The notes: generated by a model not told the origin, from the sequence alone. A stretch of 64,000 bases of DNA from Candidatus Levyibacteriota bacterium (GCA_041906785.1 JAYRIM010000028.1:121661-185660); one strand, 5' to 3'. Shown: positions 3,517-43,258, counted from the stretch's first letter. Made by a program: numbers and translations.

Positions 3517-4197
3517 ATGTTATTATCTATTATTATTCCTTCTTATAACAGTGGAGAAAGACTAGTAGAACTTATAAAGCGTCTACAAAAAATAAAAATT
3601 AAAAATATTAAAAGTGAAATCATCATTATTAATGATGCTTCAAAAGATCCAATTTATAATAAGATAAGAACACTCAGAAACATCACATATATTGAACATA
3701 AAGAAAATAAAGGAAAAGGGGGATCAGTACGAACGGGTTTTGAGAATGCTAGAGGTGATATCCTTCTCATTCAAGATGACGACTTAGAATATATACCTGA
3801 AGATATTCCAAAGTTAATAGAGCCAATTATAAAGAAAAAAACAGAAGTTGTATATGGTTCTAGAAGGCTAAATAAAAATAATAAATACTCGTCATGGACA
3901 TATTTTTTTGGTGGTGCTTTTATTAATATGCTTTTTAGAATCTTTTTAAGAACTTCTTTAACAGATGCAATCACAGGCTCTAAGGTAATTACAAGAAATG
4001 TTTACAATCATATAAAGCCAATAGAAGTAAAAGGTTTTGAGATAGAGGCAGAATTGACAGCGAAAATTTTACATAAAGGTTTTACTATTTTAGAAATTCC
4101 TATACGTTACATTCCACGTACACATAAAGAAGGGAAAAATATAAGATGGCACCATGCTTTTAGAATTATTAAAACACTTCTTTCTTATTCTTTTTAA
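3517..4197 (+). CDS. GT2 family glycosyltransferase (DPM1/polyprenol-phosphate sugar synthase-like)
   Basis: SIIIPSYNSGERL ... IIINDASKD ... LIQDDDLEY motifs (GT-A fold, DxD). Confidence 0.8.
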   Translation: MLLSIIIPSYNSGERLVELIKRLQKIKIKNIKSEIIIINDASKDPIYNKIRTLRNITYIEHKENKGKGGSVRTGFENARGDILLIQDDDLEYIPEDIPKLIEPIIKKKTEVVYGSRRLNKNNKYSSWTYFFGGAFINMLFRIFLRTSLTDAITGSKVITRNVYNHIKPIEVKGFEIEAELTAKILHKGFTILEIPIRYIPRTHKEGKNIRWHHAFRIIKTLLSYSF

Positions 4198-4211
4198 ACA
4201 CAACCATTTGT

Positions 4212-5168
4212 TCATAAAGAAACTTTTTTATCTTCTGGAGGTTCCCCATGACAAACGCCTTCACCTTTGTCTGTAAAAGTTTGCCCGTTAATTGGTTTAA
4301 ACTCCCAGCTGTAACTTTTATCATACAATGTTAATACAAGGACACCGTATGAATTGTTCTCTTTTATCTCACTGTTTCTTGCAGGTCTTCCTAAATTATG
4401 AAGCATAGTTCCACCTGTACCAACGACAAATGATCGAATTCCATACTCGTTGTCTATTTGACCTATTGGATTTAATGGTGGAAAGCGTTCATACATGTGA
4501 TCGTGTCCGGCAAGACTAATATCGCTTCCTGCATTGTAAAGTACTTCCCAAAAAGGTAAAACTGCTTGATCATTACTCGATGGTCCTGAGCTGAATCGTG
4601 GATGATGTCTATAGGCAAGTGTGCAAAAGTTTCTATGTTTATCAAGGTCTTCTTTAAGCCATGTAATCTGTTCAGAATGTTCACAATCAGGATCTTCCAC
4701 ACAAAGCTGGCTATTCAATGCAATAATATGCCATTTACCTATATCATAACTATAAAACCCTTTCCCTTCTTCTCCTGCACGTTTACCAAAATACTTAAAG
4801 TAGGCTGATGCATTCTCGGTATGATATTCATGGTTACCCACAGCTGGTCTTATTCTAGATTTCAATTTTCCCCAGGCTGGATCAAAACAATTCATGAAAT
4901 CATCCCAAGATCCATCTGGGTATCCTATATCGCCTAAAAGCGCTATTGTCCCCGGCAATTGGCCAACGAGTTGAGCAACTTTTTCATCATATTCTGAATT
5001 ACAATCTCCAATATCCCCTACTGCTATCAAAAAATGTTTTGCTACCTTATTTTTTTCAGATTCTGAGGGGTTTGTGCCATCAGTAGTAAAAATTTTATCA
5101 CTATTGTTTCTAACAATAATAATCGATATTATTACTACTATACAGATGAGCGCCAAAAACTTTTTCAT
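4212..5168 (-). CDS. calcineurin-like metallophosphoesterase (purple acid phosphatase-like), secreted/anchored
   Basis: GDIGY...GNHEY...GHDHMYER metallophosphatase signature motifs; N-terminal TM/signal. Confidence 0.75.
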   Translation of the reverse strand: MKKFLALICIVVIISIIIVRNNSDKIFTTDGTNPSESEKNKVAKHFLIAVGDIGDCNSEYDEKVAQLVGQLPGTIALLGDIGYPDGSWDDFMNCFDPAWGKLKSRIRPAVGNHEYHTENASAYFKYFGKRAGEEGKGFYSYDIGKWHIIALNSQLCVEDPDCEHSEQITWLKEDLDKHRNFCTLAYRHHPRFSSGPSSNDQAVLPFWEVLYNAGSDISLAGHDHMYERFPPLNPIGQIDNEYGIRSFVVGTGGTMLHNLGRPARNSEIKENNSYGVLVLTLYDKSYSWEFKPINGQTFTDKGEGVCHGEPPEDKKVSL

Positions 5169-5194
5169 ATTTCAGAACTAAAGTATAGTATATC

Positions 5195-6679
5195 TTGGGG
5201 TTAATAGCTATGAGAAAAAGAACACAACATTCTGTTATTGATACTGTAACAGATTTTATAATCAAAAAGAATTTTTTGTATCTAATTCCAGGTATTGTTT
5301 GGATATTTTTTAATCTTTTTTTTCTACCTTTTCAAATTGGAACTGAAGTAATGCATCGACCTTGGCTTGTAATGAGAGGAGAAATTCCTTATAGGGATTT
5401 TGAATGGATAAGAAATCCTCTAGATATCTTTTTACTTGCTAGTTCATTTAAAGTTTTTGGTTTTAATGGTTTAACACTTCGCATTTTTGTTTTTTTGATG
5501 TACACCTCTATTGCAATAACAATTTATTTTTGTGTCAGAAATATATTGAAAAATCAGGCACTTAGAAGTTTCTATATTTATATAATCATGCTTTTTCCTT
5601 TATTTATGAATACACAGATAGGAGAGGCGTTAGTAGGTTTTTTCATTTTTTTGTCGTTCTATATGTTTTGGAAGTTTACAAGTACAAACTATAATAGATT
5701 TCTTTTACTGTCTGGAGTTTTCTCCGGGCTTTCTCTTCTTACGAAACAAACATCAATAGGAATATTAACAGCGATAGGGTTAACATTATTTCTTTTTTAT
5801 TTTAGAAAGTCATTTTTAAAAAAGGTATTTATTTATATATTAGGTGTCTCTTGTATGTATTTAATTTTCATTCTCTATCTTCTCGCGAATAATGCACTGG
5901 ATGATTATTTTTATTACGCTATTTATTTTAACCTTTTCATTTATAGAGAGATTGCTGGGAGATGGGGATTAAATGAAGGAGTAAAAATGTTGATTTTATT
6001 TTTTTCCTTAGTATTTCCTTTTTCCTTTCTAAAATTAAAGAATTTTCCAAGTGTAAATAGATTTTTAATAATCTTGATTATGATCTGTATGATTCCTACT
6101 TTACTACCTTCATTCTGGTCATATAGATTGAATACGGTGCTTCCAATATTTAGCATTATTGCTTCTGTAGTGTTGTCAAAAGTATACGACCTTATCAAAC
6201 AGCGCGATAGATCTATAATTACTACATTCTCTGCTGTGATGATTCTAATCTTTCTCTATATTTTTATTTATTTCTTCAATCAATATAAGTCATTTATTAA
6301 AAACTATGGAGTTAGTTGGTCTCCTTTTATCTATGATTACTCTCAAAAAGAAATAAAAGCTGGCAAGTGGTTAAATCATAACACAGACCCCGGACAAACA
6401 ATATTTAATACAGCAAGTAATATAATTATGGTATTTAGTGAACGAGATCACCATAATAGATATATAGATGGATTACCGTGGGTTTATTATCCATATGACG
6501 AAACTTTTAAAGAAATTACGAAAGTACCTCCGAGGATTGTGATATGGGATAAGAACCTACCTTCTAATTGGCCAGAATTAAAAAATTGGAAGTTTATACC
6601 GTTTCTTAACAAAAACTATATTCTCAAAAAAAGTTTCGGAGAAATAGAAATTTATTTTTTGAAGAAAAATGTTATTTAG
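5195..6679 (+). CDS. polytopic GT-C-type membrane glycosyltransferase (GT39/GT87-like)
   Basis: At least 9 TM helices; WLVMRGEIPYRDFEWIRNPL resembles the GxxPYxDxW loop motif of GT-C mannosyltransferases. Confidence 0.45.
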   Translation: MGLIAMRKRTQHSVIDTVTDFIIKKNFLYLIPGIVWIFFNLFFLPFQIGTEVMHRPWLVMRGEIPYRDFEWIRNPLDIFLLASSFKVFGFNGLTLRIFVFLMYTSIAITIYFCVRNILKNQALRSFYIYIIMLFPLFMNTQIGEALVGFFIFLSFYMFWKFTSTNYNRFLLLSGVFSGLSLLTKQTSIGILTAIGLTLFLFYFRKSFLKKVFIYILGVSCMYLIFILYLLANNALDDYFYYAIYFNLFIYREIAGRWGLNEGVKMLILFFSLVFPFSFLKLKNFPSVNRFLIILIMICMIPTLLPSFWSYRLNTVLPIFSIIASVVLSKVYDLIKQRDRSIITTFSAVMILIFLYIFIYFFNQYKSFIKNYGVSWSPFIYDYSQKEIKAGKWLNHNTDPGQTIFNTASNIIMVFSERDHHNRYIDGLPWVYYPYDETFKEITKVPPRIVIWDKNLPSNWPELKNWKFIPFLNKNYILKKSFGEIEIYFLKKNVI

Positions 6680-8123
6680 CCTTATTACACTTGGTAATTG
6701 CTTCTTTCTCATTTCTCTGCTCAATAGTATCTTCAGTAGCATAAAAATAAAAAGTTTTAGGCTGATTTTTTTTCCAAGTAACCCGCATCTTTTTTAATGA
6801 TTCACAATCAAATACAACCTCAATTTTTTCATAATCTTTGTTATAGTAAACAGCCAAAGACCCGCTGTGCGGTAAAACACCTACATCTGTAACCCTAGAG
6901 ATTCTATTAATTTCCGGTACACCATTTCCATCAAAATATACTATAGAAAAGTTTGGTAAACTTTTAATTTTTCCTCGTATGTAGTCAAAAAGCTCTTTTC
7001 CATATCTTCTGTCTTGAGTAATTTCCTCTTGGTACTTTCGGTGTTGCATGTATTGAGGAATAAATGCCAAGCTAATAACTACAGGAAATAATAAATAAAG
7101 AATTTTATTTTTATATTGCATTAATCTCCAAATAATCCCTGCAGTTAAGATTGCATAAAAAGGTCTAATAGCGAATAAATATCGATCATAAGAAATATAG
7201 TAATCTCCAAAAATAAAAACAAATCCTGCAACCCCTAATAGTAACAATGAATATATTAATAGAAGTTTTTTATTTTTGAGTAAAAGAATAAATGTCGTTA
7301 AACATAAGAAAAATACAGATGGTAATAGAGATAGAGAAGAAAGATCAATATTGTAGATCGATAGTGTAGATGTATGAGGTATAAATACGCTCTGAACTGT
7401 TTTGGTAAAATTTTGCAATGTGTGTAAATTAAGATGTGCAAACAGCTTAGGTAACGTATGTATTTTAGAGTCAAAAAAGAAAAATCGAGGCATAACATAA
7501 TAGATTAAGTAATATATGAAAATAAAAGGTAAAAATGAAATAATTAAATATTTTATTTTTACAGATTTGACTATAAAAAGATATGTAAACAACAAATAAA
7601 GAATAAGCATATGTGCTCTATAAGGAAAGAATAAGACAGTAATGAAAGCGAAAAATATCGATATTACAAAATACTTTTTGTTATGCGTCTGAGAGTAAAA
7701 TGTAAAAGACATAAGGGTAGAAAAAAGGGTTAGTATAAATTCGTTTATTCGTATTCCTTCAGACATTGTATACAATGCATCTGATCCTACAAAAGAAAAA
7801 ATATAAAAGAAGCCAGCCATGAATGAAGAAAAGTTATTTTTAAAAAGCAGATAAGAATAAAAATAAATAACGAGAGAGGTTATTATAAATAATAAGAAAG
7901 AAAAAGCATAATAGTACACAGGTTCAAGACCAAATAGCATAATGAGTGGATTAAATATATATGACATTGCATAATAAGGATAAAAGAGAGTTTGGTTATG
8001 TCGTTGATAGTAAAGAATAGTGAAATCATCAAGTGCAAAGTTAAAAAGGAGAATAGTGCCAAATGAAAAAAATGAAAATAAAGCAAATAGAATTAAGACG
8101 ATTCTAGAGTCTCTTTTATACAT
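6672..8123 (-). CDS. polytopic membrane protein, GT-C or Wzy-like (hypothetical)
   Basis: Many TM helices followed by a C-terminal soluble domain; sits in the glycan locus. Confidence 0.35.
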   Translation of the reverse strand: MYKRDSRIVLILFALFSFFSFGTILLFNFALDDFTILYYQRHNQTLFYPYYAMSYIFNPLIMLFGLEPVYYYAFSFLLFIITSLVIYFYSYLLFKNNFSSFMAGFFYIFSFVGSDALYTMSEGIRINEFILTLFSTLMSFTFYSQTHNKKYFVISIFFAFITVLFFPYRAHMLILYLLFTYLFIVKSVKIKYLIISFLPFIFIYYLIYYVMPRFFFFDSKIHTLPKLFAHLNLHTLQNFTKTVQSVFIPHTSTLSIYNIDLSSLSLLPSVFFLCLTTFILLLKNKKLLLIYSLLLLGVAGFVFIFGDYYISYDRYLFAIRPFYAILTAGIIWRLMQYKNKILYLLFPVVISLAFIPQYMQHRKYQEEITQDRRYGKELFDYIRGKIKSLPNFSIVYFDGNGVPEINRISRVTDVGVLPHSGSLAVYYNKDYEKIEVVFDCESLKKMRVTWKKNQPKTFYFYATEDTIEQRNEKEAITKCNKAK

Positions 8124-8174: not shown

Positions 8175-8873
8175 ATGAAAAAACCAAATGTATCTATTAT
8201 TTTCCCTGTCCACAATGAAGAAGAGGGAATAACAGAGTTTATCAAGTACGTTTTTAAACAATTGAAACAAGTAGATTTTACATATGAAGTTTTCTTTATT
8301 GAAAATGGTTCTCGTGATAATAGTTTTAATATTTTAAAAGAATTGCAGAAGGAATTCGAATTTAAACTTTTAAAATCAAGGAAGGGGTGGGGAAATGCCG
8401 TAAAAGAAGGTTTTAAAAACGCGCAAGGAGAATATATTTGTTATATGGTTTCAGATTGGCAGGTAGATCCGAAATATATTTCGTTTTTAATGGAAAAAAT
8501 TACTAAATCAAATTTTGATATGGTGAAAGTAAGTAGGATGACAAGGGAAAATAAAACTAGATTAGTTAACTCACGATTATATAATTTACTTGCAATAATT
8601 TTATTTGGAACAAAAACATTCGATATTAACGCTACACCCAAGATAATAAAAGCAAAGATTATTAAAAATAAGCAATTTATTTCAGAAAATATAGCGTTTG
8701 ATTTAGAGTTATTATTATTTCTAAAAAAAAATAAATATAAGTGGAAGGATTTTTCAGTACCATCTTCCAAGCGAAAGACTGGAGTTTCCACAACAAATAT
8801 AAAATCTATTATTGAAATGCTCCGCTATATGATGATATTTAGATTTAGTTCACCTGTTAGAAAAGAACTATAG
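8175..8873 (+). CDS. GT2 family glycosyltransferase
   Basis: VSIIFPVHNEEEGI ... FFIENGSRDNS ... GEYICYMVSDWQVDP motifs. Confidence 0.75.
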   Translation: MKKPNVSIIFPVHNEEEGITEFIKYVFKQLKQVDFTYEVFFIENGSRDNSFNILKELQKEFEFKLLKSRKGWGNAVKEGFKNAQGEYICYMVSDWQVDPKYISFLMEKITKSNFDMVKVSRMTRENKTRLVNSRLYNLLAIILFGTKTFDINATPKIIKAKIIKNKQFISENIAFDLELLLFLKKNKYKWKDFSVPSSKRKTGVSTTNIKSIIEMLRYMMIFRFSSPVRKEL

Positions 8874-9875
8874 CACGGATTGATAGTGTTCAGTTTTTCC
8901 TTGTATTATTCCATATGTTCTACAAAGTTCTAAAACCCTTTGAGGTCTTCTCATAAACATCTCAAGTCTCTCTCTTTCGTGCCTTTGTCCAGGAGCCGGA
9001 TCTAATAAACTAGTTATTCGTCTTGCTAAAAAAGTATATGCTGGCGACACAGGTAGAAATTCGTCAGCTACTGGTTCACGATGAAAAACTTCTTTAATTA
9101 AATTATCAGATTGTGTTTTTGCTACTCCATCGGGATCTTCACCATGAATTTGGGTACGTAGCCAGGAATGAAAATCACCAATAGGGAATCCTATATGCGC
9201 TGCAAGGTCATTAATTCTTTGGATACCCCAGTTTCTGTATTCGAGCCAACGTTGCTTTGGCAGATTCTTGGGGCTGTCTAAATTATTTGCGTGTCTGTTG
9301 ATTAAGTCTTCAAATCTTTTTTCTATAGGTATAATAGTCCCCGCTACTGACCAACTTGCAATTTGTGTTATAGCTGGATCCCAATGTATATCTGATGGAG
9401 AAGTTGCAATTACAGGCCCGACGCTTTTTTCCGGAAAACCACGTGCTCGCTGTATCTTCTCCATAGTTGTAATTAAAGATAAAGGCAGACCTTCTTGTAT
9501 GGCGATAAGTGTTGCTAGATCTATATCTGTATGATCTTTCATATATATGTTAATAGCTTCATTTGCATGTCCAGCCGTTCCTTCATTTGCAAGTTTTCGT
9601 GGAGCGTGATAAGCAGCCATAGTTTCCAAAATAGTGTCTGGTTTTATCACTATTTGATCTTCTGGGGATTTTGACGAATTCGCTACAGTTATTTGCTGCA
9701 TTAGAACATCTGCCACAACGCTAGTCGTTACTATATGAAGTGATAGCATCGGTAGATCGAGCGTTTCATATTTCAATAAGTAGTGAAGCATTTCAGATGA
9801 TTGTAAAGGAACATCGTCTACTTTACCAAGACGTTCCCATGGGGCATATCGTAATCGTTCAACTTTTTGTGACAT
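8868..9875 (-). CDS. hypothetical protein (orphan) with composition atypical for the locus (~40% GC)
   Basis: 335-aa intact ORF on the opposite strand within the sugar-modification block. It is poor in K/I/N compared with its neighbours and has no motif I can assign. Confidence 0.45.
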   Translation of the reverse strand: MSQKVERLRYAPWERLGKVDDVPLQSSEMLHYLLKYETLDLPMLSLHIVTTSVVADVLMQQITVANSSKSPEDQIVIKPDTILETMAAYHAPRKLANEGTAGHANEAINIYMKDHTDIDLATLIAIQEGLPLSLITTMEKIQRARGFPEKSVGPVIATSPSDIHWDPAITQIASWSVAGTIIPIEKRFEDLINRHANNLDSPKNLPKQRWLEYRNWGIQRINDLAAHIGFPIGDFHSWLRTQIHGEDPDGVAKTQSDNLIKEVFHREPVADEFLPVSPAYTFLARRITSLLDPAPGQRHERERLEMFMRRPQRVLELCRTYGIIQGKTEHYQSVL

Positions 9876-10010
9876 GTGACTGGAATTATAAAGATTTGTA
9901 AAGAAAAAACAAGTTTAGAAGACGATTATTACTGAAAAACTTTTCTAAAAAAGACTATTGAAATTATATTTCTTGTATGATAGGATCGTAATCGTTGAGT
10001 TAAATTTTTT

Positions 10011-10937
10011 ATGGATAGAAGAAAAAAATTTAAATTAATAATGATTTCCGCAATGTATGAAAATGGCGGAAACACAACTCACCGTTTCCTCGATGGCCAT
10101 CCTCAACTATTCGTTTATCCATTTGAATCGCAACCTGGAACTTTTCTAGTCTCTGATTATTTAACGACATTATTTCCGCAGAAATACCGATGGCCTGAAC
10201 TTTCTATAGCAGGAAATATTTCTGATGATTATGAGTTATTGATTGATGAAGAATTAAAAAGACATGTTAAAACTCCATTCGCAAGTAAGTTTAAAGATGC
10301 GCATATGGATTTAACGGATAAAAACAGAAAAAAAATCTTTTTAGATATTTTAAAAAAGAAACCAAGAACACGTGCAAATATCGTAGAAGCCTACTATGTA
10401 TCTACATTTGAAGCCTGGAAAGACTATCAAAGATCAGGAAAAGAAATTGCTTATGTTGGATATAGTCCTATCATAGGAGTAGATGCAGAAAAAATTTTCA
10501 GTGATTTTCCTGATGCACATGTCATTCATGTAGTGCGTAATCCTTATTCAGCATATGGGGATACGAAGAAACGTCCAGTGCCGTATTCCATATCCCGTTA
10601 TATGCAAACATGGAATATTGTTCAACTTATGGCATTAAACTTCGCAGCAATGTATCCAAGACAATTTCATATAATTAAATTTGAAGATTTAGTAGCAAGC
10701 CCTAAAAAATTATTTCAAGAATTAGCTCCTAAACTAGGTATTAGATATGCAGAAACACTTGAATATCCTTCTTGGAACGGTAAAAAGCTTGAAAAAGTTG
10801 TCCCATGGGGAACAATTATGACTCCAACGACGGATTTTAATAAGCAAGTAAAAGGTGAATTAACAAAAAAAGAATATGATGCAATTAAAGAACAGACAAG
10901 TGTGATTAATAAACTGTTAGGATATGACCGATTATAA
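10011..10937 (+). CDS. sulfotransferase-family protein (putative carbohydrate sulfotransferase)
   Basis: N-terminal SAMYENGGNTT resembles the 5'-PSB loop (PKSGTT). IHVVRNPYSAYGD resembles the 3'-PB region. C-terminal FEDLVASPKKLFQELAPKLGIRY matches the typical sulfotransferase tail (yEDLvadPe..l..ic.FLGl.y). Confidence 0.5.
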   Translation: MDRRKKFKLIMISAMYENGGNTTHRFLDGHPQLFVYPFESQPGTFLVSDYLTTLFPQKYRWPELSIAGNISDDYELLIDEELKRHVKTPFASKFKDAHMDLTDKNRKKIFLDILKKKPRTRANIVEAYYVSTFEAWKDYQRSGKEIAYVGYSPIIGVDAEKIFSDFPDAHVIHVVRNPYSAYGDTKKRPVPYSISRYMQTWNIVQLMALNFAAMYPRQFHIIKFEDLVASPKKLFQELAPKLGIRYAETLEYPSWNGKKLEKVVPWGTIMTPTTDFNKQVKGELTKKEYDAIKEQTSVINKLLGYDRL

Positions 10938-11997
10938 GAAATTCGGTTTTTCAAAAAAAGAACTTCAAAAACATTCTTCACTTCAAAAAAAAACTTTTTT
11001 CTTAAAAACAGAATCGTGTTTTACTCCCAAAATATTTCTAGCAAACAAAAAAAAAGTTATTAAAAACAGAACAGTTAAATCAATAATTGATTTATATTTT
11101 GGCAAACAACAAGCTTCTGTTTTCGCTATTAAGAATGGTACACTTCACGTTCTTTATAGAATTGTTATTAATGATAAAGCATATATACTACGAATTAACA
11201 AGTTTTCAAAAAACTATAAAGAATTCTCGTTCTTTACTGAACAATGGATTTACGAAGTTTTACATGCTAATAAACTTTCTTCTTTAAATGTTATAGCAGT
11301 TGATATCTCTCGCAAAATTTTTCCTTTTGACTTTCAAATTATTGAAGAGGTTCCTGGAGTATCATTATTCGAATTAGGTAGAGAGCGAAAGATTGCATAT
11401 AAACAACACTATAATTTAGGTATTTATATAGCTAGTGTTCATAAAAATAAAACTTCCGGTTTTGGTCCTTTTTCAATAGATGATATTTTTCTAGAAAAAG
11501 GAATAGGTATCCATAACAGCTGGAAAGACTTCGTTTTTTTAAATCTTGAAGCGCACATTGGATACTGTATTAAACATAAGTTATTAGATAATACTAGCGC
11601 TCAAAAAATTGAGACATATTTTTCACATTTAGATAAAAGACTTTTTTACGTTGATCCTGTTCTACTTCATGGTGATATTGCAAATCATAATGTATTTGTC
11701 AAAGGAAATAAAATTTCTGGTGTAATAGATTGGGAAGATAGCATTTCTGGAGACCCAGTATATGATATAGCTTATTTTGGTACTGGTTGTTATAGAAATG
11801 AACAGTGGCTTTCGGCATTTTTAGACGGTTATAAAATAGTAAAATCTTTACCAAAAGACTTTGAAAAAAAATACTGGTTCTATTATCTACGAATTGCGAT
11901 TGCAAAATCTATTATTAGACATGCGACTAATAAAAAAAATAGAAACTTTGGAAAGAGAATAGAATATGGTTTAGAGAAACTCGAATCTCTTGTGTAA
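10924..11997 (+). CDS. APH/choline-kinase-like phosphotransferase (putative sugar or small-molecule kinase)
   Basis: Brenner and activation motifs LLHGDIANHNVFV ... VIDWEDSISGDPVYD, typical of the aminoglycoside phosphotransferase/CotS family. Confidence 0.7.
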   Translation: MTDYKKFGFSKKELQKHSSLQKKTFFLKTESCFTPKIFLANKKKVIKNRTVKSIIDLYFGKQQASVFAIKNGTLHVLYRIVINDKAYILRINKFSKNYKEFSFFTEQWIYEVLHANKLSSLNVIAVDISRKIFPFDFQIIEEVPGVSLFELGRERKIAYKQHYNLGIYIASVHKNKTSGFGPFSIDDIFLEKGIGIHNSWKDFVFLNLEAHIGYCIKHKLLDNTSAQKIETYFSHLDKRLFYVDPVLLHGDIANHNVFVKGNKISGVIDWEDSISGDPVYDIAYFGTGCYRNEQWLSAFLDGYKIVKSLPKDFEKKYWFYYLRIAIAKSIIRHATNKKNRNFGKRIEYGLEKLESLV

Positions 11998-12025
11998 TAA
12001 AAATATTGAAATTATAATACCTTAT

Positions 12026-12997
12026 ATGAAAAAGACAGTTTTAATTACTGGTGGATTAGGATTTATAGGAACAAATTTAATTCATGCACTTCTTAGAGAG
12101 ACAAATTATTCATTTATTATTCTTGATAAAGTAACATATGCAGGAAGGATTGATAATTTACCACAAAAAGTAAAAGATAGAAAAAGGATACAATTCGTTG
12201 AAGGTGACATCATAAATAAAAATATAGTTTTATCAGTTCTCAAAAATACTTCAATGGTAATCCATCTAGCAGCTAATACGCATACTGCACGTTCGTTAAA
12301 AGATCCTCTTTCATTTGTTAAAACAAATGTTTTAGGTACAACGCAACTGCTTGATGTTGCTAGTAAATATCCTATTCAGAAATTTATTTATATATCTAGC
12401 TCAGAAGTATATGGTGATAGAAAAGAAAAAACACCAATGGATGAGAATCATCCGTTAAATCCTGTTACACCTTATGCAGTCACAAAGCTTGCTGCAGATA
12501 GAATGGCTTATTCATATTATTTAACAAAAAAACTACCAATTGTTATACTTCGGCCTTTCAATACATACGGGTCTTATCAACACACCGAAAAAATGATTCC
12601 TCTTTTTATAACTCGACTTCTTAAAAATGAACCAATTACATTACATCATGGTGGACTTCAAAAAAGAGATTGGGTATTTGTCGAAGATCATGTGCGCGCA
12701 ATATTCTTAGCACTTATTACTCCTATAGAAAAGATTAATGGGGAAATTTTTAATATAGGAACAGGGAAAGCTACATCAACGAAAACTGTAGCAGAGTTAA
12801 TAGCAAAAGCATTAAATAAAAATAAGAACCTTGTTCAAGTAGAAAAAACGTCTTTACCTGGAACTATGAGTAATGTAGGGGTTTCTAAAAAAGCTGAAAA
12901 AATATTGGGATGGAAGAATGAAGTTTCGCTAGAAGAAGGTATTGCAAAGACTGCATTATGGTATAAAAAAAATCCTGATTGGTGGAGAAATATATGA
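12026..12997 (+). CDS. NAD-dependent nucleotide-sugar 4,6-dehydratase/epimerase (RfbB-like SDR)
   Basis: MKKTVLITGGLGFIGTN start (internal ATG of ORF 11990..12997); YISSSEVYGD catalytic region. Confidence 0.75.
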   Translation: MKKTVLITGGLGFIGTNLIHALLRETNYSFIILDKVTYAGRIDNLPQKVKDRKRIQFVEGDIINKNIVLSVLKNTSMVIHLAANTHTARSLKDPLSFVKTNVLGTTQLLDVASKYPIQKFIYISSSEVYGDRKEKTPMDENHPLNPVTPYAVTKLAADRMAYSYYLTKKLPIVILRPFNTYGSYQHTEKMIPLFITRLLKNEPITLHHGGLQKRDWVFVEDHVRAIFLALITPIEKINGEIFNIGTGKATSTKTVAELIAKALNKNKNLVQVEKTSLPGTMSNVGVSKKAEKILGWKNEVSLEEGIAKTALWYKKNPDWWRNI

Positions 12998-13917
12998 AAA
13001 AAAATATTGTTTTAACAGGTGGAGGAGGATTTATCGGTGCGACCTTAATTCGGAAAAGTATCAAGAAATATAATGTGCATGTCATAGCAAGGGAAGGCGG
13101 TTCATTATGGAGGTTAGACGATCTACAGAAAGATCTAACTATCCATACAGGATTACTTGAAGATTTACCAAAATTGACAAGGTTAATGCAAGAAATTCAG
13201 CCGAAAGCGATATTTCACCTTGCTACATATGGAGCTTATCCCTCACAAAATATTCCATTAAAAATGATCGATGTAAACGTGAAGGGAACAATGAATCTAT
13301 TAGAGAGCATTAAAAATGTTGAATATGACCAATGTATTGTAACAGGAAGTTCGTCAGAATATGGAAAAAAAGATAAAGAGATGCGGGAAAATGATTTTAT
13401 TGAACCAAATAATTATTATGCTGCTACAAAAGCAGCACAAACGCATTTATGCCAAGTTTTTTCAAAAACTAACAAAAAACCTTTACTCATTTTTCGTCTT
13501 TTTAATGTATATGGACCATTTGAAGAGAAAGGGAGATTGGTGCGAACAGTTATTGAATCTGTACTAAACAAAAAACCTATACCACTAGCTACTGGAAAAG
13601 AAGCAAGAGATTTTATTCATGTAGAAGACGTGGCAGATGCATTTTTACGAGGTATACATAAACGGACATTATATGGTGAAGTATTCAACATAGGTACTGG
13701 CAAGCAAACAACGATAAAGCAACTTGCTGAACATATAATCGACATTACAGGAATCAAGGTGCCTATCCAACTGAATGTTTATCCGGGACGAGAATGGGAT
13801 GCATTTCACTGGAAAGCAGATACAAAGAAAACAGAAAATGTGCTTGGTTGGAAAGCAAAATACTCTCTAGATGAAGGATTAAAGAAGACCATTGCATGGT
13901 ATAGGTTACAAAAATAG
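12994..13917 (+). CDS. NAD-dependent epimerase/dehydratase (SDR)
   Basis: MKKNIVLTGGGGFIGATL Rossmann motif; start overlaps the upstream gene (ATGA). Confidence 0.75.
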   Translation: MKKNIVLTGGGGFIGATLIRKSIKKYNVHVIAREGGSLWRLDDLQKDLTIHTGLLEDLPKLTRLMQEIQPKAIFHLATYGAYPSQNIPLKMIDVNVKGTMNLLESIKNVEYDQCIVTGSSSEYGKKDKEMRENDFIEPNNYYAATKAAQTHLCQVFSKTNKKPLLIFRLFNVYGPFEEKGRLVRTVIESVLNKKPIPLATGKEARDFIHVEDVADAFLRGIHKRTLYGEVFNIGTGKQTTIKQLAEHIIDITGIKVPIQLNVYPGREWDAFHWKADTKKTENVLGWKAKYSLDEGLKKTIAWYRLQK

Positions 13918-13918
13918 T

Positions 13919-14731
13919 ATGTCTAATTCAGAATTACATAAAGTTTCTAAAGAGATCGCATTATTAACACTTGAAATTTCTTATTTAGCAAAAACCGGAC
14001 ATGTTGGCTCTGCATTATCAATAGTAGATATTTTAACAGTGTTGTATTTCACGCAGTTAAACGTTACGCTTGAAAATTTATCCTCGGAAAAAAGAGATCG
14101 ATTTATTCTCAGTAAGGGCCACGCCGCTGCTGCGCTGTATGCGACTTTATATAAAAAAGGGATTTTATCAAAAAAGAAATTGTATAGCTTCGGTTCTGAT
14201 GAAGGAGGGTTATGTGAACATACAGAGATTGAAGATACAGGCATAGAGATGACAAGTGGTTCTTTAGGGCATGGGTTAGGTTTTGGTGTGGGCATTGCAT
14301 TAGGAATGAAGCTTGCAACTGTAAAAAGCCAGGTATATGTATTGATTAGTGACGGAGAGTGTGGAGAAGGCTCTGTATGGGAGTCGGCATATTTAGCCAG
14401 TAAATTAAGATTAGATAATTTGACAGTTATTATTGATAATAATAAATGGCAATGTTTTGGAAAGGTTTCAGACATTACAAATATTACTCCTTTTAGGCCT
14501 AAATGGGAATCATTCGGATGGCATGTAGAAGAGATAGAGGGGCACGATACGTCAGCAATTCGCAATTCATTTCAAAGAATCAAATTAGTAAAAGAAAAAC
14601 CTCATGTCATTATTGCTAATACTGTAAGTGGTAAGGGAATATCTATGATCGAAGACAAACTGATCGGTCATTATAAAGTCTTTACAGATGAGGAATATGT
14701 ATTAGCCAGAAAGGAAATTGAACAGCTATGA
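13919..14731 (+). CDS. transketolase, N-terminal (TPP-binding) subunit of a split transketolase
   Basis: GHVGSALSIVDILTVLYF ... SKGHAAAALYATL ... ISDGECGEGSVWE are hallmark transketolase N-domain motifs; ~270 aa. Confidence 0.85.
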   Translation: MSNSELHKVSKEIALLTLEISYLAKTGHVGSALSIVDILTVLYFTQLNVTLENLSSEKRDRFILSKGHAAAALYATLYKKGILSKKKLYSFGSDEGGLCEHTEIEDTGIEMTSGSLGHGLGFGVGIALGMKLATVKSQVYVLISDGECGEGSVWESAYLASKLRLDNLTVIIDNNKWQCFGKVSDITNITPFRPKWESFGWHVEEIEGHDTSAIRNSFQRIKLVKEKPHVIIANTVSGKGISMIEDKLIGHYKVFTDEEYVLARKEIEQL

Positions 14732-15681
14732 GGAAAGCCTTTATAAAAGCTTTATGCGAAATAGCAAAAAAAGACGAAAGAGTTGTACTCCTTACTGGTG
14801 ATTTAGGGTTTAACGTTTTAGAACCTTTTAAAGAACATTTCCCAGATAGATTTTTTAATATAGGTGTAGCCGAAGCAAATCTCGTAACTGTAGCCGCAGG
14901 TTTAGCTACTGCCGGTTATATTCCCTTAACGTACTCTATAGCTACATTTATGAGTATGAGACCTTTCGAACAGATACGAAACATGGTAAGTCTGCAGAAT
15001 CTAAACGTAAAAATAATAGCTGTTGGGGCAGGAATTTCCTACACAAAAGCTGGACCTACACATCATGCAATTGAAGATATTTCGCTTATGCGTTCTTTAC
15101 CGAACATGACTATTATCGCTCCTTCAGACCAAAAAGAAACATATCAAGCAACAAAAGCGATGCTAGCGTATTCAGGCCCTGTGTATTTCAGAATAGGAAG
15201 AAATCCTGCCGATAGTATTGTTATCCCAGAATCAACATTTATCATAGGTAGAGCGAGATTATTACAAAAAGGTGAGAAAATCGCATTATTGGCTACTGGT
15301 AATCAAGTAGAGATTGCATTTCAAGTTGCAAAAATACTAAAGCAATTAAATATTCAAGCGTCTATATATAGTTTTCCCACAGTTAAACCACTAGATAAAC
15401 AAACACTCAGCGAAATTTATTCTAGCCATGTAGTAATTGCTACTCTTGAGGATCATAGTATTACTGGGGGATTTGGTTCAGCGATTTGTGAAGATGTTTA
15501 TGAAGAACCGCTTGCTGTGTATCCTTCAATTGTACGCTTCGGATTTAAGCCTGGATATAGCAAATTGTCAGCATCATATAGCAAAATGATCGAAGAATAC
15601 AGTTTTTCTCCTTATCAAATTGCTGAGAGAATTCTACAAATTATGATGAAACAATTTTCTCTGCAGAACAATTCTCTTTAA
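14728..15681 (+). CDS. transketolase, C-terminal (pyrimidine-binding) subunit of a split transketolase
   Basis: FNIGVAEANLVTVAAGLA ... and C-terminal domain features; ATGA overlap with the N-subunit gene. Confidence 0.85.
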   Translation: MRKAFIKALCEIAKKDERVVLLTGDLGFNVLEPFKEHFPDRFFNIGVAEANLVTVAAGLATAGYIPLTYSIATFMSMRPFEQIRNMVSLQNLNVKIIAVGAGISYTKAGPTHHAIEDISLMRSLPNMTIIAPSDQKETYQATKAMLAYSGPVYFRIGRNPADSIVIPESTFIIGRARLLQKGEKIALLATGNQVEIAFQVAKILKQLNIQASIYSFPTVKPLDKQTLSEIYSSHVVIATLEDHSITGGFGSAICEDVYEEPLAVYPSIVRFGFKPGYSKLSASYSKMIEEYSFSPYQIAERILQIMMKQFSLQNNSL

Positions 15682-19134: not shown

Positions 19135-21048
19135 ATGTTTACTTTTAGCGCAAAAGACTTACCATTTTTCTTCACAGAACAACTAGATAAATTTTCAATT
19201 ATACCTTTCGTTTGGGATTCTACCAGAGCAAATGGTTTTGGTGAAAATATTTCTTCTCTTTTATGGTTAAGAAGCTTTATATATATACCTTCTAGTTTTC
19301 TGCATAATCTTTTCAACTTTGATTGGTTCCAGATAACAATATTTTATTATTTTCTTTTTATTTTTTTTGCTCTGATTTCAATACGGACTTTTACATCTTT
19401 TTTTGAAATAAAAAATATCTTTATAAAGATATTTTTTGGAATAATTTTTATCACCAATACATATACTGCTATGCTTTTAGATGGTGGCCAATTGGGAGTT
19501 TTGTTGGCATACAGTTTAGTACCTCTCGTTTTTACACTTTTTTCAAATGTAGTTACGAAGAAAACACATAGATTTATTGATGTGATTGATGCCGGGATAA
19601 TACTAGCATTACAACTGCTTATAGATATCCGAATTGCATTACTTACAGTTTTCTGCATTTTTCTTTACTGGATTATCCATATTTTTCTATTTCCCGATAA
19701 AATAAATTTTTTAAAATTAATACTTAAATATAGAACTTCATCATTTATTATTGTATTTCTACTTCATCTGTTTTGGATAATTCCTTCATTAATAAGCTTT
19801 ATGACTTCTAGCCAATTCAATGTCCCATCGGATAGTAGACAAACCGGTCAATATTTTAGTTTTGCCAAATTTGAAAATGCTATCGCATTATTACATCCAA
19901 ATTGGCCAGAAAATATTTTTGGAAAAGTATATTTTATGAAACCTGAATTTCTCATTATTCCCCTTGCTGTTTTTTCAGTACTATTATTGATTGACTTAAG
20001 AAATAAGGAGAAAACTAAGAACATATTATTTTTTTGTCTTCTTAGTATCATTGGAATCTTTTTAGCGAAAGGGACAAATGAACCTTTTGGGTTTATATAC
20101 ACCTATATGCTTCACTATATTCCTGGATTTGTGTTCTTTCGAGATCCTACAAAATGGTATATATTGATCGCATTTTCATACTCTTTTTTATTATCGTTCG
20201 TAGTATCTACATTTGTTGGTTATATAAAAAGTAAACTGATTAAACAATGTATACTTCTGATAATCTTTTTAGTTTTTTTAAGTCCTTCGATTTCTGTAAT
20301 ACCGCCGGACAGAAATAGCGCACTTCGCATAAAAGAAGTTCCCTCGTCATATGTACAACTTAAAGATTTTTTAATTAATAAAGATTTTTCTCGAACATTC
20401 TGGATACCTGAACGCCAGACATTTGGTTATTATGATGCTATGCATCCAGCAATAAATGGCAATGAATACATGAAAGAATTTGTACCTGAGACTATCGCAA
20501 AGAAATTAATAAGTAAGAAATATGAATATATGTTTAAGGAACAATCTATTCGGTATGTTATTGTTCCTGAAGATACAAACGGTGAATTATTTCTTTCAGA
20601 TCGAAAGTTTGATCAAAGAAAATATAGAAAGGTAATTACGGCTCTGGATTCTATAGACTGGCTTAAGAAAATTGAAACATTTGGTTCAATACAAGTATAT
20701 GAGATTTATGAACCAATGACTCTTTTTTGGGATGCAAATACAAAAATGAATTTTCCGGGAAGCATGGTTAATCAGACTACTTACACAGTAAATGTAGCTA
20801 AACAAAACCGAACGAAACTTATCTTTTCAACTGGTTTTGATCCTCATTGGGAAGCAAGAATGAATGATAAAATAATCCATCCAAAATCTTATAAAACTTT
20901 AACAGCATTTAATCTGCCAACTGAAGCTAACGAGGTTTTTATCACTTATAATATTCAGCCTATAGTTAGATTTTGGTTTTTTAGTTCCTGTATGCTTTTC
21001 TTGCTGATCATTGTTGCAAGATATATAATGTGGAGGAGAAATATATGA
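19135..21048 (+). CDS. YfhO-like GT-C membrane glycosyltransferase
   Basis: N-terminal polytopic domain; C-terminal DPHWEARMNDK ... final TM resembles the YfhO C-terminus (DPGWKAxVDGK). Immediately followed by a GtrB/CsbB-like gene. Confidence 0.55.
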   Translation: MFTFSAKDLPFFFTEQLDKFSIIPFVWDSTRANGFGENISSLLWLRSFIYIPSSFLHNLFNFDWFQITIFYYFLFIFFALISIRTFTSFFEIKNIFIKIFFGIIFITNTYTAMLLDGGQLGVLLAYSLVPLVFTLFSNVVTKKTHRFIDVIDAGIILALQLLIDIRIALLTVFCIFLYWIIHIFLFPDKINFLKLILKYRTSSFIIVFLLHLFWIIPSLISFMTSSQFNVPSDSRQTGQYFSFAKFENAIALLHPNWPENIFGKVYFMKPEFLIIPLAVFSVLLLIDLRNKEKTKNILFFCLLSIIGIFLAKGTNEPFGFIYTYMLHYIPGFVFFRDPTKWYILIAFSYSFLLSFVVSTFVGYIKSKLIKQCILLIIFLVFLSPSISVIPPDRNSALRIKEVPSSYVQLKDFLINKDFSRTFWIPERQTFGYYDAMHPAINGNEYMKEFVPETIAKKLISKKYEYMFKEQSIRYVIVPEDTNGELFLSDRKFDQRKYRKVITALDSIDWLKKIETFGSIQVYEIYEPMTLFWDANTKMNFPGSMVNQTTYTVNVAKQNRTKLIFSTGFDPHWEARMNDKIIHPKSYKTLTAFNLPTEANEVFITYNIQPIVRFWFFSSCMLFLLIIVARYIMWRRNI

Positions 21049-22189: not shown

Positions 22190-22729
22190 ATGAAAATTGG
22201 AATAGATATTTCACAAACTGCTTATGAAGGAACCGGAGTTGCAAATTTCCTTGAAAGATTGGTAGAAACTCTACTAAAAATTGATGAAACGAATGAATAC
22301 ATTTTATTTTATTCATCGCTTCGGAAAAAATTTCCAATTTCCAATTTCCAATTTCAAATTTCAAATAAAAACTTCACAATAAAACAGTTTAAATTACCTC
22401 CAAGCTTACTTGATATATTGTGGAATAAGTTGCATATTGTTCCCATTGAAACATTGATTGGAGATGTAGATGTATTTATATCTTCAGACTGGACTCAACC
22501 ACCTACAAGTAAAGCAAAGCAGGTGACAATTCTCTATGACTTAATTGTGTATACATATCCTGAAGAAACAGACAAAAAAATTGTTGAAGTGCAAAAAAGA
22601 AGACTACAGTGGGTAAAAAAAGAATGTGATCAGATACTATGCATTTCAGAATCCACAAAAAATGATGCAATGAGAATTCTAGGCATAGAAAAGGAGAGGT
22701 TACAGGTTATTTATCCTGGTGTACAATAA
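22190..22729 (+). CDS. GT4 glycosyltransferase, N-terminal (acceptor) domain only. Either a truncated tandem paralog or a pseudogene remnant. Contains a 35-nt heptamer repeat tract.
   Basis: MKIGIDISQTAYEGTGVANF ... ends at YPGVQ*, exactly where the GT4 C-terminal domain would begin. The next gene is a full-length paralog that has its own N-terminal domain. Confidence 0.55.
   Translation: MKIGIDISQTAYEGTGVANFLERLVETLLKIDETNEYILFYSSLRKKFPISNFQFQISNKNFTIKQFKLPPSLLDILWNKLHIVPIETLIGDVDVFISSDWTQPPTSKAKQVTILYDLIVYTYPEETDKKIVEVQKRRLQWVKKECDQILCISESTKNDAMRILGIEKERLQVIYPGVQ
22331..22365 (+). repeat. heptanucleotide tandem repeat tract (3x TTTCCAA + 2x TTTCAAA = 35 nt) inside the GT4 N-domain ORF
   Basis: Read directly from the sequence; encodes FPISNFQFQISN. 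The 7-nt unit is not a multiple of 3. Confidence 0.85.
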
Positions 22730-22733
22730 GAAT

Positions 22734-42407: not shown

Positions 42408-43202
42408 CTAGGCAACTTTTCTGTAAAACTGAGATAAAGGAATAGGAGATTGATCTTGGGGAACAACAATTGTTCCAGGTATTATGACACGCATACGTAA
42501 ATCTTCACCTCGAAATTCACCATCTGTATCCAATCCACATCCTTCAAGCCATCCATTCGGGGTATAGTATCCAGGAAATCTAATCGGTTTTTTCAAGAAT
42601 TGTTCCTGTTCCTCATGTTCTGCTCCCCTTTTTATAAATAACACACTTTCTTCTAAATTCGGATACAGTTCAGCAAGTCTCTCTCTAACTGCAAGTATAC
42701 TAAAACCTGTATCAAGTACATCATCTAACGTGATAACTGGCCCTGTTGAAGGTCTTAGTCTTTCTAATTCCTGTTGTATAAAACGAGGTTGTCTGTTCGA
42801 TGTCATTTTATCGTCATAACTTGAGACATGGAGTGAATGATAACTAAAATCTTTAATATCTCTTCGTTGAAGCGCAGAGAATAACCAACCTGCGAAAGGT
42901 AAGCCTCCTTCTAACATAATTAAAAATTTTGCTTTCTGCTTTCGAATCTCAGGAGCCATTTTATCTGCAATTTTGTCTACTTCTTCAAGAACTTGTTCAT
43001 GGGTTAATAAAAGTTCATATTCCACACCATTTTCTACATAGTACATACTTTTTTCAGAATGAGGGTTGGGTTGTGTTCCGGCTCCTTCAGGAATATGCAC
43101 CTTTGGTAATCCATTTGGTGTTAATATGCTGCTTTCGCCATTGGGTCGTAAAACAGTTCGATATCTTTCCGGTGTATAGATTATTCCTTCTTTTATTGCC
43201 AT
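42408..43202 (-). CDS. phosphoribosyltransferase-domain protein (HGPRT-like)
   Basis: VITLDDVLDTGFSI matches the PRPP-binding motif (hydrophobic4-DD-x-x-DTG); intermediate GC. Confidence 0.55.
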   Translation of the reverse strand: MAIKEGIIYTPERYRTVLRPNGESSILTPNGLPKVHIPEGAGTQPNPHSEKSMYYVENGVEYELLLTHEQVLEEVDKIADKMAPEIRKQKAKFLIMLEGGLPFAGWLFSALQRRDIKDFSYHSLHVSSYDDKMTSNRQPRFIQQELERLRPSTGPVITLDDVLDTGFSILAVRERLAELYPNLEESVLFIKRGAEHEEQEQFLKKPIRFPGYYTPNGWLEGCGLDTDGEFRGEDLRMRVIIPGTIVVPQDQSPIPLSQFYRKVA

Positions 43203-43228
43203 ATTTTATGTATAAAATTTTGGTGATT

Positions 43229-43258
43229 GGGGGGCCCCGATGTGAAATCGGGACCCCC
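43229..43258 (-). terminator. GC-rich hairpin at the left boundary of the high-GC island (candidate terminator of the minus-strand phosphorylase gene)
   Basis: GGGGGCCCCGAT-gtgaa-ATCGGGACCCCC (11-bp stem with one mismatch); an A/T-rich run follows on the minus strand. Confidence 0.4.

Follow-up and report, generated by a model that had tools for sequence, protein, structure and literature searches.

A rare 335-residue protein of CPR glycan operons with a predicted HD-like core, encoded next to an independent sulfotransferase-kinase cassette

In the genome of a Candidatus Levyibacteriota bacterium, a stretch of 64,000 nucleotides (GCA_041906785.1, JAYRIM010000028.1:121661-185660; here termed the window) contains a minus-strand gene with an ATG start (8868..9875) that encodes a 335-residue protein and is located between a GT2 gene (8175-8873; PF00535, 6e-23) and a sulfotransferase-like gene. 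The question raised by this locus is what such a protein does there. The first-pass annotation, which had placed the reading frame correctly, described it as an orphan of atypical composition lying antisense to the locus, and suggested that it could be a sulfate/PAPS-handling or regulatory protein associated with the neighbouring sulfotransferase/kinase pair.

The gene is real and conserved, since 23 full-length homologues (41-49% identity) were found along with a distant subfamily of approximately 10 members from code-25 CPR genomes, to which the main-family profile matches at E values of 1e-32 to 1e-39. The term orphan is therefore appropriate with regard to named families but not with regard to homologues, of which there are approximately 35 at full length, nearly all on CPR contigs. 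The family is nevertheless very rare and confined almost entirely to such contigs: a search of 1.84 billion cluster representatives yielded only 18 at E<=1e-3. As had been noted earlier, no family could be recognised: there is no Pfam model for the protein, which had no match in Pfam or NCBIfam and none among PDB sequences even at E<=10, and searches of Pfam, NCBIfam, PHROGs and PDB with the two family profiles as well as the protein found nothing. Pfam searches with 20 family members at E<=10 gave no HD-clan match and no HDOD match, and profile searches of the PDB with the family returned only unrelated matches with E values above 0.3.

The atypical composition is a local feature only: the reading frame has a GC content of 39.0%, compared with 27-33% in the flanking genes and 34.3% in the whole window, but its GC3 of 0.24 equals the genome norm (approximately 0.23-0.25). 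The excess is carried by codon positions 1 and 2 and results from an amino-acid content low in K/N/I/F/Y residues (a fraction of 0.21) and high in G/A/R/P residues (0.25); housekeeping genes elsewhere in the window reach GC contents of 0.37-0.395. Horizontal transfer as the source of the higher GC content was rejected on the basis of the GC3 value and the codon positions involved; flanking repeats around the gene did not exceed chance, so there is no sign of a mobile element. A separate GC-rich block at 43-46 kb had no match in Rfam, and rRNA was rejected as its cause for this reason. The protein itself is soluble and cytoplasmic, with a GRAVY of -0.34, and the absence of a transmembrane helix reported at first pass was borne out: its top-scoring 19-residue Kyte-Doolittle window (1.62) corresponds to a buried core helix in the predicted structure.

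The GT2 gene and the 335-residue protein gene converge on the palindrome CTATAG (8868..8873, read from the sequence), within which both stop codons are located (TAG at 8871-8873 for the GT2 gene and TAG on the minus strand at 8868-8870 for the 335-residue protein gene), leaving no intergenic spacer, and a terminator scan found none at this junction. On its other side, the gene is separated from the sulfotransferase operon by a divergent, AT-rich intergenic region of 135 bp (9876..10010), which contains a TATAAT ending 9 nt ahead of its ATG and a TTGAAA-17-TAGGAT 25 nt ahead of the sulfotransferase ATG; no Shine-Dalgarno sequence is evident ahead of the 335-residue protein gene. These promoter-like sequences are given low weight because the scan around the gene found no more sites than chance (13 compared with 10.2 +/- 3.5 expected, no excess over shuffled sequence), and terminators in the same surroundings were likewise not enriched over shuffled sequence. 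The gene is antisense only with respect to the plus-strand operon beginning at 10011 and not to the locus as a whole, as strands alternate among the genes at 1.8-9.9 kb.

The plus-strand operon begins with a Sulfotransfer_3 gene (PF13469; 10011..10937; 1.7e-12, 48.5 bits against a Pfam cut-off of 27), the first gene of a conserved cassette. It is followed by a gene for an APH-fold small-molecule kinase (PF01636; 10924..11997, plus strand; 1.3e-20, 74.6 bits against a cut-off of 23.2), which overlaps it by 14 nt (ATGACCGATTATAA), as previously described, and is translationally coupled to it. The remainder of the cassette (11990..15681, plus strand) comprises, according to Pfam, two SDR NDP-sugar epimerase/dehydratase genes (11990-12997, overlapping the APH gene by 8 nt, and 12979-13917) and a split transketolase (13892-14731 and 14728-15681); it is collinear with locus L022 at 55-60% identity and is also present in L024. 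The earlier suggestion that the sulfotransferase and the kinase form a module was correct, given that the pair recurs in CPR genomes and on an Acidobacteriota contig (L022, L023 and L024), with the 14-nt overlap repeated in two of these three loci and SDR epimerase/dehydratase genes and a split transketolase always following.

The 335-residue protein is absent from all three of these loci. In L022, the closest collinear locus, the GT2 gene and the sulfotransferase gene are separated by a 42-bp spacer, at the position of which the window has the 335-residue protein gene, while in L023 the same slot holds a weakly HD-like domain fused to His_Phos_1; homology of our protein to the HD-like half of this fusion was rejected, as both hmmsearch and hhalign were non-significant and only the order of motifs agrees. 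Neither sulfotransferase nor APH homologues are present in the 14 loci carrying a homologue of the 335-residue protein gene or in loci added later, and the two families differ approximately 100-fold in abundance (about 35 members compared with more than 3,500 for the sulfotransferase). The gene is thus a single-gene, opposite-strand insertion between the GT2 gene and an independent sulfotransferase-kinase-SDR-transketolase cassette, and its product is independent of the sulfotransferase/kinase pair. That it might handle sulfate or PAPS, or serve the pair as a dedicated partner, is hardly credible and already effectively refuted by distribution: what speaks for it is adjacency in one genome only, between divergent genes 135 bp apart, whereas the protein has no similarity to ATP sulfurylase, APS kinase, PAPS reductase or CysQ, and the PAPS-synthesis genes which the first-pass annotation proposed to look for are absent from the window.

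A more informative context is provided by the homologues, since 18 of the 19 independent family loci are NDP-sugar or glycan operons, containing genes for SDR enzymes, ThDP branching enzymes or C-methyltransferases, methyltransferases, GT2s and phosphatases. The family gene often overlaps or starts a few nucleotides from an adjacent enzyme gene, this being an upstream SAM methyltransferase or GT2 gene or a downstream GFO_IDH_MocA gene. A ThDP branching enzyme (split transketolase or YerE-like) is found beside an SDR in six family loci and a TylC3-type C-methyltransferase in approximately eight. The phosphatases adjoining the family gene belong to His_Phos_1 in five independent loci and to NT5C in one, and the family member is followed downstream by KdsA-like DAHP_synth_1 genes, closely in L025 and after approximately 1.5 kb in L027. 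Three synteny types can be distinguished, which have no single partner gene in common to point to a particular substrate; L001 (56% GC) is the sole family locus without any glycan genes.

Structure prediction gave an AF2 model with a pLDDT of 87.1 and a pTM of 0.89, for which Foldseek searches of PDB and BFVD returned nothing significant (no match below E 0.3). According to this model, the N-terminal half forms a core of nine helices (approximately residues 25-197; 9285..9803, minus strand) with a divergent, all-alpha fold of the HD/PDE-superfamily type that is superposable on HD domains, and the closest structural matches are HDOD domains (3i7a, 3hc1, 3m1t, SadB 9qzk and MmoQ 3p3q). The 23 full-length homologues share 36 invariant columns, including four His, one Asp and four Arg, and the invariant residues of the core include H47, H90, R93, H115, D190, R194 and H195. 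The motif AYHAPRKL (9591..9614, minus strand; family consensus AYHAxRP), which has an invariant H90 and R93 and an A91 conserved in at least 90% of members, is located at the C-terminal end of the helix spanning residues 79-90 in the model and is the putative positional counterpart of the HD[IL]GK motif, with Asp replaced by Ala. In a non-significant hhalign alignment with the weakly HD-like protein, H47 was aligned to the first His and AYHAPRKL was one residue out of register with LHDAAR. The complete H...HD...D metal motif is absent from the family: H47, H90 and D190 are kept, but H90 is followed by Ala in at least 90% of sequences, and the distant subfamily lacks both H115 and H195.

Two further elements distinguish the model. 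The conserved loop GFPEKSVGPVIATSPS (9393..9440, minus strand; consensus RGFPxKTIGPxN), with G146, F147, P148 and G153 invariant, is predicted to be flexible, its pLDDT being below 50 across residues 146-161, and is a candidate substrate lid. The C-terminal helical extension (residues 198-335; 8871..9284, minus strand) packs on the core in the model and contains the invariant motif DEFLP (residues 271-275; 9051-9065, minus strand). In the full-length model its pLDDT ranges from 84 to 97 up to residue 290 and from 73 to 90 thereafter, but when folded alone the C-terminal fragment reaches a pLDDT of 69 and a pTM of only 0.40, compared with 0.89 for the whole protein, and as modelled it is not an autonomous domain.

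With about even confidence, we regard the 335-residue protein as an accessory enzyme in the biosynthesis of cell-surface glycans, which would tailor or process a phosphate-bearing sugar intermediate. Its substrate would be an NDP-activated branched or methylated deoxysugar, or a sugar phosphate derived from one. Assuming that the conserved residues cluster in one pocket, H47, H90 and D190 would hold a divalent metal, with help from H115 and H195 in members of the main subfamily, R93, R187, R194 and R220 would bind the phosphate or diphosphate, and the flexible loop 146-161 and the DEFLP motif would close over the sugar. In the most specific version of this mechanism, the protein would cleave a phosphoester or phosphoanhydride bond and so strip the nucleotide carrier from the modified sugar or sugar phosphate, and this product would be taken over by a phosphatase, KdsA-like synthase, aminotransferase or GT2 encoded nearby. 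Catalysis, metal binding, substrate class and reaction are all inferred; the invariant loop that is predicted to be disordered and the acidic character of the family (pI mostly 5.2-6.9) are features in favour of an enzyme. Against this reading stand the absence of any sequence or profile link to HD families, the replacement by Ala of the HD-dyad Asp, a defining metal ligand, the loss of H115 and H195 in the distant subfamily, the fact that the best structural matches are HDOD domains, the lack of glycan genes in L001 and the absence of a single partner shared across synteny types. More tentatively, and with the balance against it, the family may constitute an undescribed class of HD-fold enzymes with a remodelled metal site (H...H-A...D) and the C-terminal DEFLP, performing a dedicated step in CPR branched or methylated deoxysugar biosynthesis, e.g., hydrolytic release from the nucleotide carrier or modification of a side chain installed by a ThDP or SAM enzyme. 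To our knowledge, no member of the HD superfamily has been credited with either reaction in a glycan pathway.

HDOD domains are regarded as non-catalytic, and a rather unlikely alternative is that the protein is, likewise without catalysis of its own, an HDOD-like binding or scaffold protein that would use its degenerate HD fold to bind nucleotides, NDP-sugars or partner enzymes and thereby tune or organise the glycan-assembly enzymes. As in many HDOD domains (PF08668), the catalytic HD tetrad is incomplete, but the family has no HDOD profile match, even a weak one, and its unusually rich set of invariant polar residues (the four His, one Asp, four Arg and DEFLP), together with the mobile loop, is more reminiscent of an active site. 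Furthermore, no REC, GGDEF or EAL signalling domains occur in the protein or its neighbours at the loci examined, and the family, which is operonic with biosynthetic enzymes, is not associated with regulators of motility or biofilm formation.

An HD-fold enzyme which is not hydrolytic, either a MIOX/PhnZ-like oxygenase or a cyanamide-hydratase-like hydratase or lyase, could remodel the sugar at its branched side chain and not at a phosphate ester; this appears improbable, as the residue that is missing is the bridging Asp needed by diiron HD oxygenases, the distant subfamily has not retained H115 and H195, and the several invariant Arg and recurrent phosphatase neighbours point to phosphate chemistry. 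The regulatory role offered by the first-pass annotation, here a transcriptional regulator of the glycan locus with an HD-like sensor coupled to a helix-turn-helix (HTH) at residues 205-245, we consider very improbable, even though the spacing within residues 221-240 (INDLAAHIGFPIGDFHSWLR) is that of a classical HTH (hydrophobic residues at 4, 8, 10, 15 and 18, Ala at 5 and Gly at 9), a protein composed of five HTH_7 repeats of the resolvase type is matched by the family profile (E 2e-5), weak HTH_Tnp_1_2 matches occur in three of 20 members (best 0.009), and the gene in the window is monocistronic and divergent from the operon. The corresponding hhalign probability is only 25%, the HTH-like stretch is acidic to neutral in most members (pI 5-6.5), its would-be DNA-contact positions are not basic, it lies in the C-terminal part that does not fold confidently alone, and in most loci the family gene is part of an operon, overlapping or directly adjoining an enzyme gene.

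With regard to known systems, the protein differs from the HD superfamily (PF01966/HD_PDEase clan, including YfbR, YqeK, dGTPases and the SpoT hydrolase domain) in having no detectable sequence or profile similarity to it, in the Ala at the position of the HD-dyad Asp, in the additional C-terminal helical extension of 140 residues with the invariant DEFLP, in the long, conserved, disordered loop inserted in its core, and in a setting of glycan operons and not nucleotide metabolism. The role proposed for it, removal of the nucleotide from a tailored NDP-sugar for a downstream synthase or kinase, would be the same as that of PseG and the NeuC/LegG hydrolysing 2-epimerases of nonulosonic-acid pathways. 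The analogy is confined to function: the GT-B-like or epimerase folds of PseG and NeuC are entirely different from the fold predicted here, and most family loci lack an ulosonic-acid synthase. Six family loci contain an NTP-transferase, SDR dehydratase, ThDP enzyme and SDR reductase in an arrangement like that of YerE/YerF for branched-chain deoxysugars (yersiniose and erwiniose; PMC9306805). One of these six has a true YerE-like TPP_enzyme_N/M/C protein, the window having the split-transketolase version, and other family loci have C-methyltransferases in place of ThDP enzymes. We know of no HD-like protein in the described yersiniose-type pathways.

CPR bacteria (Patescibacteria) are tiny episymbionts, the surface glycans of which probably mediate attachment to the host, and their glycosylation islands are large and full of unnamed proteins; literature searches found nothing relevant on HD-domain proteins in nucleotide-sugar clusters or on CPR glycosylation. 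The 335-residue protein now has a fold class, candidate active-site residues and a reproducible context in NDP-sugar operons for C-branched or methylated deoxysugars, and can on this basis be tested as a possible missing step in these pathways; if non-catalytic, it would be another degenerate HD/HDOD-like fold recruited to glycan assembly.

The neighbouring cassette has features of its own. The sulfotransferase-like protein contains the 3'-phosphate-binding motif VRNP, within a VRNPYSAY that is invariant across phyla in the alignment. A canonical 5'-PSB loop carries Lys, and here the PKxGTT-like loop is replaced by an invariant ISAMYENGGNT with no Lys, so that the protein may use a donor other than PAPS or a different mechanism. 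In the kinase, the translated catalytic motifs HGDIANHN and IDWED are intact. The sulfotransferase family comprises 3,593 proteins at E<=1e-10, 55-75% identical across phyla, and the cassette, being widespread across phyla, strongly conserved and apparently biochemically uncharacterised, may be a more rewarding target than the 335-residue protein.

The open reading frame at 8868-9875 on the minus strand, which starts with ATG and encodes 335 amino acids, is a real gene belonging to a very rare family. The first-pass annotation had described its product as an orphan, and this holds inasmuch as sequence searches of Pfam, NCBIfam, PHROG and the PDB returned no match; however, 5.8 billion protein clusters contained 23 full-length, conserved homologues at 41-49% identity, none of which (0/23) carries a Pfam domain, the few named ones being labelled Patescibacteria or Parcubacteria. 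Among 1.84 billion cluster representatives, the family profile matched only 18 at E<=1e-3, a distant subfamily included. This subfamily (about ten members, with E-values of 1e-32 to 1e-39 against the main-family profile) comes from genomes reading UGA as a sense codon: on four of its contigs (L015, L025, L026 and L027) the genes contain 9-19 in-frame UGA codons each and give uninterrupted reading frames under translation table 25, codon usage that is consistent with Gracilibacteria or Absconditabacteria. Three other family-bearing contigs (L011, L012 and L013; 34-40% GC) are labelled 'Woesearchaeota archaeon' or 'uncultured Gammaproteobacteria' in automated MAG submissions; since their gene content and GC resemble those of candidate phyla radiation (CPR) loci, these labels may be a result of mis-binning.

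The composition of the gene, previously called atypical, does stand above that of its neighbours (39.0% GC compared with 27-33% in adjacent genes and 34.3% in the whole window), but its GC3 of 0.24 is the genome norm, and the difference is thus no signature of foreign DNA. The surplus falls in the first and second codon positions, a consequence of the protein's low K/N/I/F/Y and high G/A/R/P content, and housekeeping genes elsewhere in the window reach a GC of 0.37-0.395. Similarly, the gene is antisense only relative to the operon beginning at 10011, the strand of genes alternating across 1.8-9.9 kb. Its stop codon overlaps that of a convergent GT2 gene (8175-8873; PF00535, 6e-23) within the palindrome CTATAG, and no mobile-element repeats flank it. 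The other annotated neighbours were confirmed by Pfam matches: a Sulfotransfer_3 protein (10011-10937, 1.7e-12) and an APH-fold kinase (10924-11997, 1.3e-20), whose genes overlap by the 14 nt noted earlier, the kinase gene overlapping the next one by 8 nt. The protein itself is soluble (GRAVY -0.34) and, as had been stated, contains no convincing transmembrane segment.

The family alignment has 36 invariant columns, including H47, H90, R93, H115, D190, R194, H195, W165 and W175, the loop G146-F147-P148...G153 and the motif D271-E-F-L-P275; near-invariant across both subfamilies are H47, H90, R/K93, R187, D190, R194, E272, F273 and P275. An AlphaFold2 model built from this alignment is of high confidence (pLDDT 87.1, pTM 0.89) and all-alpha, with one segment predicted to be disordered, residues 146-161, corresponding to the conserved GFPxKTxGPxN loop. 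The closest known kind of protein is the HD/PDE superfamily, with HDOD domains within it being the nearest structures; Foldseek searches against the PDB and BFVD found nothing significant, the highest-probability matches again being HD proteins. From the predicted structure it is concluded that residues ~25-197 make up a divergent HD-like core, and common ancestry with HD proteins is likely, short of proof because the structural scores are moderate. The AYHAxRP motif lies at the C-terminal end of a helix, in the same place as HD[IL]GK in canonical HD proteins, with the Asp of the HD dyad replaced by Ala in at least 90% of family members. The defining H...HD...D tetrad is therefore incomplete, which is why we call the protein HD-like and not a member of the HD family. 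In contrast with the superfamily, this family also has no profile similarity to any HD family, carries an invariant motif of its own within a C-terminal extension of 140 residues, has a long conserved loop inserted in the core, and is confined to CPR glycan operons, apart from one locus without glycan genes.

Of 19 independent family loci examined, 18 are NDP-sugar or glycan operons, the exception being that same locus (L001, 56% GC). In type A loci the order is GT2, GT4, SDR, CMAS-like SAM methyltransferase, family gene and GT2, with the stop of the methyltransferase overlapping the family gene. Type B loci begin with an NTP-transferase, a 4,6-dehydratase, a UDP-glucose-dehydrogenase-like gene and a TylC3-type C-methyltransferase, after which come a divergent His_Phos_1 phosphatase and the family gene, then a GFO_IDH_MocA oxidoreductase that overlaps the latter, and an AftD-like GT-C. 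Type C (the window, L012 and L013) comprises a pair of SDRs with a split transketolase, plus a methyltransferase and GT2. In the distant, code-25 subfamily an NTP-transferase, SDR, ThDP enzyme (split transketolase or YerE-like TPP enzyme) and SDR precede the family gene, and downstream of it lie a KdsA-like DAHP_synth_1, DegT aminotransferase or NT5C nucleotidase gene along with methyltransferases and GT2s; one of these loci, L027, carries two tandem family paralogues (5918-6985 and 7001-8071), and another, L026, is a compact operon running from NTP-transferase through SDR, YerE-like enzyme and SDR to the family gene and DegT. Phosphatases are frequent neighbours. The pairing of a ThDP enzyme with an adjacent NAD(P)H reductase follows the established YerE/YerF scheme for making C-branched deoxysugars (PMC9306805). 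Because such ThDP/reductase pairs or C-methyltransferases are found in the family loci, their common denominator is the addition of C-branches or methyl groups to NDP-keto-deoxysugars as a tailoring step. C-methyltransferases produce the other class of branched sugars.

Proteins of 637-737 aa with no Pfam match also recur (window 19135-21048; L002 846-2888; L004 21-2015; L017 9891-12104), those of L002 and L004 being 34-35% identical to the window protein and that of L017 matching the GT-C_AftD arabinofuranosyltransferase model at 9.9e-9. These large proteins, combined with the PMT_2 proteins and the numerous small GT2s, suggest polyprenyl-phosphate-sugar donors and extracytoplasmic GT-C transfer.

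The window's protein is conserved, soluble, compact and all-alpha, with a degenerate dyad in the modelled HD-like core, a rich invariant set of His, Asp and Arg and a conserved loop predicted to be mobile, and genes of its family are in tight operonic linkage with sugar-nucleotide tailoring enzymes and phosphatases; we infer that it is probably an enzyme. H47, H90 and D190, with H115 and H195, would form a metal site, conserved arginines would hold a phosphate or diphosphate, and the substrate would be an NDP-activated branched or methylated deoxysugar or a sugar phosphate derived from such. The most specific proposal, made tentatively, is that a tailored sugar or sugar phosphate may be hydrolytically released from the nucleotide, a product that would supply the adjacent phosphatase, KdsA-like synthase, aminotransferase or polyprenyl-phosphate GT2; this role would be analogous to that of PseG and NeuC, whereas the fold is not. 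A non-catalytic, HDOD-like binder or scaffold is an unlikely alternative to an enzyme, and a non-hydrolytic HD-type oxygenase or hydratase working on the sugar branch is less probable again. The earlier suggestion of a regulator is retained as a minor and quite improbable reading: residues 221-240, INDLAAHIGFPIGDFHSWLR, show textbook helix-turn-helix spacing, the family profile weakly matches a protein of five resolvase-type HTH_7 repeats (E 2e-5) and three of 20 family members give weak HTH matches in Pfam, but the hhalign probability is 25% and the HTH-like region, like the whole proteins, is acidic in most members. Furthermore, the C-terminal residues 198-335 model poorly when folded alone (pLDDT 69, pTM 0.40) and well in the full-length model (pLDDT 84-97 through residue 290 and 73-90 beyond), which indicates that their helices belong to one globule, as opposed to forming a DNA-binding domain of their own. 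Unnamed proteins abound in CPR glycan islands; this family is sharply defined, with testable residues and a reproducible pathway context, and no surprising mechanism has been demonstrated.

The least probable reading is that the protein handles PAPS or sulfate as a partner of the sulfotransferase/kinase pair, as the first-pass annotation had proposed. The family's linkage to this pair is not conserved: neither the sulfotransferase nor the APH kinase of the window has a homologue in the other family loci, and a family member is absent from all three sulfotransferase loci examined (L022, L023 and L024). No PAPS-synthesis gene was found within the 64-kb window. The pair does form a module, the kinase following the sulfotransferase in 3/3 of these loci (with the same 14-nt overlap in two) and being followed by SDR genes and a split transketolase, and the gene order Sulfotransfer_3, APH kinase, SDR, (SDR), split transketolase holds across lineages from CPR to Acidobacteriota; in the window this cassette occupies 10011-15681 (plus strand). 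L022 is collinear with the window from GT2 through transketolase-C (identities: GT2 55%, sulfotransferase 73%, APH 33%, SDRs 60% and 55%, transketolase halves 59% and 56%), and just 42 bp separate its GT2 from its sulfotransferase, the slot that in the window holds the reversed gene. As the families occur apart and L022 has only this spacer in the same slot, the gene is a lineage-specific insertion beside an independent cassette.

The sulfotransferase family comprises 3,593 proteins at E<=1e-10, the best 120 of which are 54-75% identical and span CPR, Acidobacteriota and Planctomycetota. Canonical PAPS-binding loops carry a lysine; the invariant P-loop here, ISAMYENGGNT, has none. No biochemical characterisation of the cassette was found, and it may merit its own study; in the wps-1 cluster of Actinoplanes missouriensis, the sulfotransferase WpsH occurs alongside the kinase-like protein WpsI (PMC13390465). 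In L023, a Gottesmanbacteria contig, the GT2-sulfotransferase slot is occupied by a 497-aa fusion (3869-5362) of a weakly HD-like domain with a canonical-looking H...LHDAAR (PF01966, E 0.01, below cut-off) and a C-terminal His_Phos_1 phosphatase. This parallels the adjacency of family gene and His_Phos_1 in type B loci, with no detectable homology between the fusion and the window's 335-aa protein.

The first 38.5 kb of the window is one large glycosylation island, containing many GT2 and GT4 genes, PMT_2 and AftD-like GT-C enzymes, SDRs, a transketolase, methyltransferases, a hexapeptide acyltransferase, a ManC-like NTP-transferase and a Bac_transf priming enzyme. Within it, a 179-aa ORF at 22190-22729 has only an N-terminal GT4 domain (Glyco_transf_4) and overlaps the start of a full-length GT4 (22719-23885); a frameshift, or the splitting or duplication of a glycosyltransferase, could account for it. 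Housekeeping genes occupy 38.9-64 kb (RecO, an aminoacyl-tRNA synthetase, MraW, PBP, Mur ligases, MurA, GlmS and MraY) and flank on both sides the true compositional outlier of the window, a 3.2-kb block at 43,150-46,400 with 52-62% GC and GC3 of ~0.70 within a 34% GC genome. Its identity as rRNA was rejected, Rfam being empty for the whole window, with no tRNAs either. The block carries ABC-transporter genes on the minus strand, namely those for an NMT1/THI5-like binding protein (45160-46314) and a BPD_transp_1 permease (44284-45147) and an ORF with no Pfam match (43305-44351), and reflects either recent horizontal transfer or a chimeric assembly.
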